Source of the DNA: Escherichia coli
GTDB lineage: Bacteria > Pseudomonadota > Gammaproteobacteria > Enterobacterales > Enterobacteriaceae
NCBI RefSeq assembly: GCF_003334305.1
Contig: NZ_QOWS01000029.1
Length of the DNA: 43,616 bases
Direction: 5' to 3' (one strand)
Shown one piece after another: positions 10,703 through 11,106 of the stretch (position 1 is its first letter; every line of letters starts with the position of its first letter). The notes beneath the pieces were generated by a model. The model was not told the DNA's origin. It was given only the letters and a program-made list of their open reading frames with translations, and made no database searches. The position numbers and the translations under genes are program-made.

Positions 10703-11106
10703 TATTGCAATCTCCTGTGTTGTAAATAGACGTTTCAAACTTAATTTTACGCCTACTACCATACAAGAGAGAAAAAGAGATTATTCAACCGTGATCACAT
10801 TAAAAACAAAAATTTCCACCGAGGAGAAAAAATACCCTCAAAAACCACCTGAATAATTAACCATTATCGTTAAAACAACACGTTAAATAATCACATAACA
10901 AACTCCATTAATCATTAAAAATGGGCACAGCAATAGAAAATAATTATATTCAATTAATTAAAATATGTATTGGTTGATGTATTTGAAAATATGATTTTCA
11001 TGGGGAGTGTGAAGGTAAAGAAGACACAATGATAAAAAGGAATGTGACAAATAATGGTTCTGGTTGGGCGTTAAATTTAAGCTCACCAGAATGCTGACAA
11101 ATTTCT

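Follow-up and report, generated by a model that had tools for sequence, protein, structure and literature searches.

What controls an operon that brings no regulator gene of its own, and what part does the AT-rich DNA in front of it play in that control? Both questions are raised by the argH/oxyS locus of Escherichia coli, where manD, encoding a D-mannonate dehydratase, and a downstream gene for a major facilitator superfamily (MFS) permease follow a spacer that is conspicuously AT-rich over positions 10703–11106. The sequence belongs to a 43,616-bp stretch of the E. coli chromosome (contig NZ_QOWS01000029.1, hereafter the window), which is 100% identical to strain 2011C-4251. We computed the composition of the AT-rich stretch, the accessory status of the operon, the identity and spacing of its promoter motifs, and the pattern of conservation. 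We consider it likely that the AT-rich stretch serves as the control region upstream of a manD-MFS operon that is old and varies between strains, with an rspA-type promoter and with control by the repressor RspR, together with CRP, borrowed from the core-genome paralog rspA.

An rspA-type promoter signature precedes manD

Comparison of the spacer with the E. coli rspA promoter first brought out a shared element, CTTGTATGGTAGT, and all loci were then scanned for it. The composite promoter, conserved across Enterobacterales, consists of TGTGATC, followed after 25 nt by CTTGTATGGTAGT overlapping the −35 region, and then by a −10 element of the form TAnnTT. Upstream of manD, the core element lies on the minus strand at 10755–10767, with the −35 hexamer TTGTAT at 10761–10766, and is the presumed RspR site. 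The hexamer starts 64 nt before the manD ATG. The predicted −10 element TAAGTT (10738–10743, minus strand) follows after a 17-nt spacer and aligns with the TAnnTT of 78 rspA promoters, which is located 17–18 nt after TTGTAT among promoters of this type.

The exact 12-mer core CTTGTATGGTAG begins 65 nt before the manD ATG, a position shared with 78 rspA promoters. Across 78 loci ranging from Escherichia to Serratia, Pectobacterium, Rahnella, Budvicia, and Pragia, the core lies about 62–77 nt before the rspA/manD ATG (62–66 nt in most), and CTTGTATGGTAG(T) covers the −35 region on the coding strand at 78 of the 78 scored rspA-proximal sites, to which the window is an exact match. The 12-mer occurs a single time in the window, against a chance expectation of about 0.005, and it is also unique in the 21-kb locus of a “big-island” form described below; no second copy of the core motif was found before the permease gene or in the big-island genes. 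In other genera, a core in the same orientation also precedes orthologs of the permease gene, ydfI-like reductase genes, stand-alone rspB, and further transporter genes of the cluster.

A CRP-like site, TGTGATCACGGTTGAA, is located at 10784–10799 on the minus strand, with a perfect left half (5/5), a degenerate right half (2/5), and its center at 10791.5. TGTGATC occupies 10793–10799, 32 nt upstream of the core. The same spacing recurs among the other loci, as TGTGA lies 32–33 nt upstream of CTTGTATGG in 71 of 78 rspA promoters and in 11 of 18 other promoters of the cluster. The center falls at −59.5 from the predicted transcription start site (TSS) at 10732, and at −60.5 from the mapped TSS in the K-12 rspA equivalent, which places it within 1–2 bp of the class I position (−61.5), given the inferred TSS.

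C10732 sits 30 nt before the manD ATG and matches, position for position, the mapped K-12 rspA TSS. Transcription of manD would then start at about C10732, with a predicted 30-nt 5′ untranslated region (5′UTR; 10703–10732, minus strand) that contains the Shine-Dalgarno sequence AGGAG at 10712–10716. A first-pass annotation had described the entire AT-rich stretch as a 400-bp leader. This description did not hold up, since by homology to rspA transcription would begin about 30 nt ahead of the ATG, leaving about 370 bp untranscribed, and neither Rfam nor RNA folding gives a signal. We regard it as very improbable that the stretch is transcribed as a long 5′ leader acting in cis, be it through a riboswitch, an attenuator, or a leader peptide, or that it encodes a small RNA. 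A weak promoter-like sequence on the manD strand, TTCACA-16-TATTTT at 11013–10986, would produce a leader of about 275 nt, inside which a 37-nt invariant block (see below) would fall. However, promoter-like sites are not enriched (3 found against 2.1 expected from shuffles), and the homologous rspA promoter has its mapped TSS at −30. Rfam yields only a sub-threshold match derived from repetitive extragenic palindromic (REP) elements (E ≤ 1) besides a spurious snoRNA match that we discounted, the RNA fold of 10703–10985 has z = −1.3, and the mini open reading frames (ORFs) are not conserved among E. coli, Escherichia whittamii, and the big-island allele. The small ORFs were rejected as genes: a 72-residue ORF at 10958–11176 and mini-ORFs of 10 and 5 residues either run through the REP element or are not kept between alleles. 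No listed RefSeq record annotates a feature under the spacer.

RspR as the predicted trans-acting regulator

RspR (YdfH) of K-12 is a GntR/FadR-type regulator that gave a single peak, at rspA, in genomic systematic evolution of ligands by exponential enrichment (gSELEX) (Shimada et al., 2021, PMC8249747). Its DNase footprint at rspA covers 31 bp centered on ATACTTGTAT; RspR represses the rspAB operon, and mutation of rspR derepresses rspA. Transcription of rspA starts at a C located 30 nt ahead of the ATG, and the RspR box was described as the 10-bp palindrome ATACnnGTAT (PMC8249747). Footprint, repression, and TSS are published for rspA; the manD TSS, the action of RspR and CRP at manD, and any role of H-NS are inferred. 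By position, the manD core overlaps the RspR-footprinted ATACTTGTAT of K-12 rspA.

A homolog of rspR is found in 5418 of 5426 complete E. coli genomes, and rspR orthologs are linked to the rsp cluster in six other genera. K-12, the strain used for gSELEX, does not have the manD module. In an E. coli rsp cluster lacking the Qin prophage, rspA is the only gene preceded by the core motif, which agrees with the single K-12 gSELEX peak and makes manD the predicted second RspR target in module-bearing strains. It had been proposed from the first reading of the DNA that the operon, having no linked regulator, must be controlled in trans. The module indeed contains no regulator gene, and the rspA-type operator offers RspR, encoded in the core genome, as the candidate trans factor. 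The missing regulator is most likely RspR, probably together with CRP.

Several points weigh against this assignment. The RspR box ATACnnGTAT has no match at ≤1 mismatch in 10703–11200. Instead, the window has TCTCTTGTAT, which retains the right arm GTAT but has lost the left arm ATAC, so RspR binding at manD could be weaker or absent. Because the published box was absent at this threshold, the conserved core was redefined by comparison, and we assigned the site to the comparatively defined class of rspA-type promoters, not to the proven RspR boxes. The form lacking the left arm, TTCTTGTATGGTAGT, also stands before permease and ydfI genes of other genera, and the window site is most like those; this form is a candidate RspR operator. 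As for CRP, the right half of the site is poor (2/5; TTGAA vs. TCACA) and not kept across loci, and published CRP evidence for rspA was not found in the literature searched, leaving CRP binding at manD as a prediction from the left half and its spacing. Control by RspR and CRP also leaves the AT-richness of the upstream 300 bp and the role of the 37-nt block unaccounted for.

Among the promoters bearing the core, those of ydfI-like genes in other genera showed a further feature. They contain CTTGTATGG(C/T)AGTTGAT followed downstream by ATGTCATACCAAT, which resembles an ExuR/UxuR-type half-site (locus L004 at 11090, L022 at 11053, L025 at 8700, L053 at 9788, and L063 at 9788). This arrangement suggests dual control of the ydfI-like gene in those genera. 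The E. coli ydfJ-ydfI spacer does not contain the core motif.

Conservation of the upstream region

We aligned 13 alleles of the spacer; the identities given here compare the window with E. whittamii. Identity is 98.5% over 10702–10768, 94% over 10769–10818, and 91% over 10819–10903, a segment conserved only within Escherichia. It drops to 78% over the distal AT-rich tract (10904–11052, GC 21–28%), close to the neutral divergence at 4-fold degenerate sites, and returns to 90% over 11053–11112. Invariant runs coincide with each predicted promoter element, namely the Shine-Dalgarno sequence and ATG (10690–10718), the −10 element (10734–10748), the core (10750–10766), and TGTGATCA (10792–10806). 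TTGTATGGTAGTAGGCG is invariant in the 13 alleles, and so is TTTTTAATGTGATCA of the CRP-like site across the aligned alleles. The big-island allele is about 90–98% identical up to about 10903 and 56% identical over 10904–11052, yet equally AT-rich there. Sequence constraint is thus absent from the most AT-rich 150 bp, but the low GC content persists there.

The longest invariant run is a 37-nt block, TTTGTTATGTGATTATTTAACGTGTTGTTTTAACGAT, at 10866–10902 on the minus strand (−134 to −170). It is identical in 11 small-allele sequences, including E. whittamii, and 34 of its 37 nucleotides are kept in the big-island allele. No copy was found elsewhere, and the block shows neither a convincing transcription-factor consensus nor an RNA-structure signal. 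It probably binds a further factor. The heptamer TTTAACG occurs three times on the minus strand (10868–74, 10881–87, and 11069–75), each time within an invariant run; the triple is not significant alone, as some 7-mer occurs thrice in 12.6% of random sequences of matched composition. A segment beside the REP element (11053–11106) is also conserved and contains the invariant run CTTAAATTTAACGCCCA at 11065–11081, but it is absent from the big-island allele.

Consensus scans for IHF, FNR, KdgR, ExuR/UxuR, Lrp, Fis, ArgR, and OxyR returned weak, AT-driven matches only. Two candidates were rejected: a lone ARG-box-like 18-mer at 10848–10865, which has 3 mismatches and no tandem partner, and a KdgR-like palindrome, TGAAAA-N5-TTTTCA at 10983–10999, which has the wrong spacing and is not kept in other alleles. 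In blastn searches with the whole spacer, the same locus of E. whittamii was the sole match among 80 Enterobacterales loci, and no locus but this one was found in the 5426 E. coli genomes.

The drift of the distal tract raises the possibility that about 10904–11052 is a functionless spacer, its composition reflecting mutational AT bias or origin, and that only the proximal 200 bp or so are regulatory. We hold this to be quite possible, although somewhat short of an even chance. Its divergence of 22% from E. whittamii equals that of 4-fold sites in manD (23%) and argH (20.5%), the big-island allele is merely 56% identical in the tract, and no ORF, RNA family, or repeat was detected there. On the other hand, its GC content of 21–28% lies below that of any other intergenic 150-bp window in the 43.6 kb, low GC has been retained in three deeply diverged alleles, hinting at compositional selection, and short invariant runs occur within or beside the tract (e.g., 11032–11043 and 11065–11081).

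Base composition and a possible role of H-NS

The first-pass annotation was right about the composition itself. The 404 bp at 10703–11106, directly upstream of the minus-strand manD ATG (10702–10700), have a GC content of 30.4%, compared with 52.1% across the whole window and 53.1% in its coding DNA, and the three AT runs that had been quoted from this stretch all occur there as written. No more than 0.4% of the 404-bp windows have so low a GC content; the remaining comparably low ones are located at 35358–35805 and 42429–43568. In 100-bp steps, GC bottoms out at 21–24% across 10851–11000. The entire argH/manD spacer (10703–11200) has 34.1% GC with a 150-bp minimum of 21.3%. Among the 20 intergenic regions of the window that measure 60 bp or more, it ranks first in AT-richness, the other 19 having 45.4% GC when pooled and 150-bp minima of 30–57%. 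Because its GC content is unlike that of the other intergenic regions, the observation of a distinctly AT-rich stretch stands. Its right edge at 11106 is the point where the GC-rich REP element (11107–11160) begins.

H-NS prefers AT-rich DNA. Accordingly, H-NS and StpA might nucleate on the AT tract, spread over the promoter, and exert the chief control of the module, a reading that is compatible with RspR control as an additional layer. We entertain it as a tentative alternative, and a little less readily than a functionless distal spacer. About 340 bp at 21–36% GC lie far below the 45% intergenic mean of the window, the module is accessory, and AT-richness is kept in all alleles while the distal sequence drifts neutrally, as would fit a compositional rather than a sequence-specific constraint. 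However, the high-affinity motif TCGATAAATT has no match at ≤1 mismatch in the region, where two matches with 2 mismatches were found, and the predicted curvature (wedge model) peaks at the 94.6–95.7th percentile of the window, which is not extreme; neither motif nor curvature tells much about H-NS. With coding genes at a GC content of 0.50, the tract is a short and solitary one. The module is also ancient in Escherichia, not a recent import, and its specific promoter/operator is conserved, which argues that a dedicated regulator exists. Enterotoxigenic E. coli H10407, for which chromatin immunoprecipitation sequencing (ChIP-seq) of CRP and H-NS is available, does not have the module, and no ChIP data were found for a module-bearing strain. 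From its composition, H-NS binding to the stretch is plausible.

Other AT-rich stretches of the window deserve mention. The next most AT-rich promoter region is the metF/katG intergenic region (35280–35607), with a GC content of 0.405 and a 150-bp minimum of 0.30. At the window end, yiiX and the IS1/yiiX spacer constitute a second strongly AT-rich stretch (GC 0.28–0.32, 42429–43568). A copy of IS621 (IS110 family) lies between yiiX and metJ (41284–42264), and a frameshifted IS1 is located at the extreme window end.

Distribution and age of the module

Of 5426 complete E. coli genomes, 1717 (about one-third) contain the spacer at a coverage of at least 80%, in a single copy that is always chromosomal, and the carriers include O104:H4, avian pathogenic (APEC), and ST131-type strains. 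A further 135–150 or so of the 5426 genomes hold the big-island form of the locus, in which about 9 kb of genes with 42–46% GC are inserted between argH and the AT-rich spacer/manD/MFS unit. These genes (e.g., NZ_CP147046.1, 4319026–4328092) encode an AraD-like protein, a DeoR regulator, a sugar ABC transporter, an L-ribulose-5-phosphate 3-epimerase, and an FGGY kinase, and the rspA-type motif is absent from their promoters. Strain LP5-1 (NZ_CP101866.1) has lost manD and the N-terminal part of the permease to an IS1 insertion/deletion, which leaves only the first 49 bp or so of the spacer beside the REP element.

The small module also occurs at the same chromosomal site in E. whittamii. Divergence between E. 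coli and E. whittamii at 4-fold sites is 0.23 for manD and 0.205 for argH, and this equality indicates a long residence of the module. By contrast, 4-fold divergence has reached saturation (about 0.6) when manD is compared with rspA of E. coli or with RspA genes from other genera. The composition of manD is ordinary, with a GC content of 0.50 and 0.51 at third codon positions (GC3). The module is accessory yet old, dating to the E. coli/E. whittamii split as judged from these divergences, and its genes are not compositionally foreign. The suggestion that AT-richness marks horizontally acquired DNA was therefore only partly upheld: the module is strain-variable (1717/5426), but since its coding genes are compositionally normal, at GC 0.50, and it is as old as the species split, the AT-richness is not simply a sign of recent transfer.

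Kinship with the rsp/ydf cluster

The ManD protein matches the NCBIfam ManD equivalog NF043051 with 733 bits, and its closest solved structure is RspA (PDB 4il2, E 3e-270). Its amino acid identity is 91.6% to E. coli RspA and 90–94% to RspA of other genera (80 Enterobacterales loci). The MFS protein belongs to the D-galactonate-transporter subfamily (TIGR00893), at 276 bits, below the cut-off. Other genera have permease orthologs of 84–89% identity within their rspAB clusters. An ortholog of 86–89% identity is found immediately upstream of rspA, in a cluster rspA-rspB-ydfJ-ydfI, in Enterobacter, Pluralibacter, Citrobacter, and Raoultella, and in Lelliottia, the ortholog (84%) comes after rspA in the order rspA-MFS-rspB. 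The ManD/RspA paralogy, together with the permease orthologs within the rsp cluster, identifies the E. coli module by sequence as a paralogous branch of the core rspAB/ydf sugar-acid cluster.

This parentage could suggest that the AT-rich DNA is a decayed gene or mobile-element remnant, such as ynfA and its terminator, which lie ahead of rspA in the parental cluster. A terminator-like hairpin with a T-run (GAGGG...CCTC GGTGGAAATTTTTGTTTTT) does lie just upstream of TGTGATC, at the position of the ynfA terminator in other genera. But neither tblastn of YnfA nor sensitive blastn of 79 upstream regions against the three alleles gave a match better than E of about 0.02–0.03, and blastn against all E. 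coli genomes matches this locus only, and we give a remnant hardly any credence.

The module and its chromosomal neighborhood

The gene order is sthA, oxyR, oxyS, MFS transporter, manD, the AT-rich stretch, REP element and hairpin, argH, argB, argC, argE, and ppc. Alignment to the empty site of strain KSC207 delimits the accessory module, comprising the MFS permease gene, manD, the AT-rich upstream region, the REP element, and the hairpin, to 8093–11188 (minus strand). The permease gene (8138–9421, minus strand; RefSeq annotation, NCBIfam TIGR00893) is the second of the operon, after manD, a member of the enolase superfamily (9488–10702, minus strand; NF043051). One module junction lies at about 8093, just past the oxyS terminator, and the other at about 11188, some 15 nt past the argH stop codon. 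In the empty sites of K-12-type genomes, oxyS and argH stand directly back to back, and the 3.1-kb module occupies the place of the K-12-type argH terminator.

The terminator is replaced by a hairpin just after the argH stop (GCTCCCC-TGAAAAT-GGGGAGC; 11168–11188, minus strand), with a 7-bp stem and no T-tract. Next to it lies the REP element downstream of argH (11107–11160, minus strand), a GC-rich imperfect palindrome that qualifies as REP; the fold of 11095–11205 has z −5.5, and the Rfam match to the REP-derived naRNA4 (11057–11137; 27.9 bits) is below threshold. The E. whittamii locus contains at least 4 similar copies, in a tandem array at 428–832.

argH (11201–12574, minus strand) belongs to argCBH, which is co-directional with manD, so the spacer may also insulate manD from argCBH read-through. 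The final two argH codons (11201–11209) vary by allele, being Leu-Glu in the window and O104:H4 and Leu-Gly in K-12-type and B2-type strains, and recombination at this hotspot therefore extends into the end of argH. At the other junction, the oxyS sRNA gene (7982–8091, plus strand; Rfam RF00035, 139.5 bits) is convergent with the permease gene, and it is the 3′ end of the permease gene, not argH, that faces the oxyS terminator in module-bearing strains. Further away, the cobalamin riboswitch upstream of btuB (2803–2992, minus strand; Rfam RF00174, 86.8 bits) was found as expected.

A proposed control scheme and its implications

Based on the promoter architecture, we propose that the 100 bp or so at 10703–10800 constitute an rspA-type σ70 promoter with a CRP-like half-site, a −35 TTGTAT within CTTGTATGGTAGT, a −10 TAAGTT, and a strong Shine-Dalgarno sequence. 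RspR would bind the core over the −35 of manD and block RNA polymerase, as at K-12 rspA, until a sugar-acid effector relieves the repression, and cAMP-CRP near −60 would activate the operon. Borrowing the regulators of its core paralog would explain why the module carries no regulator gene. Farther upstream, the 37-nt block within 10819–10903 probably binds a further factor, and 10904–11052 may serve as a platform for H-NS-type nucleoid proteins or as a spacer insulating manD from argCBH read-through.

The manD promoter region is previously undescribed but ordinary, and nothing suggests a new kind of mechanism. The scheme turns “no linked regulator” into a specific wiring, in which an accessory manD-permease operon is seemingly run through the operator of the core paralog rspA. 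If so, the label of RspR as a single-target regulator, which comes from K-12, would fail for the species as a whole. The comparison also yields TGTGATC-N25-CTTGTATGGTAGT as a promoter/operator signature across Enterobacterales for the rsp/ydf cluster, which is poorly understood, and flags the 37-nt block as one short ultra-conserved element. A more far-reaching version would give RspR a second, strain-variable target in about one-third of E. coli, with the operator joined to the factor-binding 37-nt block (−134 to −170) and to an H-NS-recruiting AT tract. In this full combination we find it rather unlikely. If true, a core repressor, CRP, a nucleoid silencer, and a further factor would jointly control an accessory operon for sugar-acid uptake and dehydration, providing a worked example of an accessory paralog wired into the core regulatory network.

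Comparison with known systems

Xenogeneic silencing by H-NS/StpA acts on promoters of horizontally acquired islands. The manD module shares with such islands an AT-rich upstream region, strain variability, and the lack of its own regulator. However, its AT-rich tract is short, its coding GC is normal, the module is ancient, its specific operator is conserved, and no high-affinity motif was found at ≤1 mismatch.

The lac promoter is a class I CRP-dependent catabolic promoter with a 22-bp site, TGTGA-N6-TCACA, centered at −61.5. As at such promoters, the TGTGATC half-site of manD lies about 60 bp before the predicted TSS of a sugar-acid operon and is conserved across genera. Unlike them, the manD site has a degenerate right half (TTGAA in place of TCACA) and a center corresponding to −59.5/−60.5 rather than −61.5.

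The K-12 rspAB promoter (PMC8249747) also precedes a ManD/RspA dehydratase gene, the two proteins being 91.6% identical. It has CTTGTATGGTAGT over the −35 region at the same distance from the ATG, TGTGATC 32 nt upstream, a TA..TT −10 element, and a C where the TSS was mapped, giving a 5′UTR of 30 nt. The differences are that the manD site has TCTC in place of the left arm ATAC, that its −35/−10 spacer is 17 nt instead of 18 nt, and that the second gene of the manD operon encodes an MFS permease instead of being rspB. The manD locus is accessory, situated at argH/oxyS, and its upstream region of about 340 bp is AT-rich and Escherichia-specific, whereas rspA is preceded by ynfA and a GC-rich terminator. 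Binding of RspR has been demonstrated at rspA and is predicted at manD.

The promoters of MFS and ydfI-like genes in Enterobacter, Pluralibacter, Citrobacter, Raoultella, Klebsiella, and other genera contain (T)TCTTGTATGGTAGTAG(C/G)CG without the ATAC arm and have TGTGATC 32 nt upstream, in the same orientation to the gene as at manD. They differ from the manD promoter in residing within the core cluster beside rspA, in having the permease gene first (MFS, then rspA) or ydfI, and in having no AT-rich tract. In its operator, the manD site resembles these MFS/ydfI-like sites of other genera more than the rspA sites.

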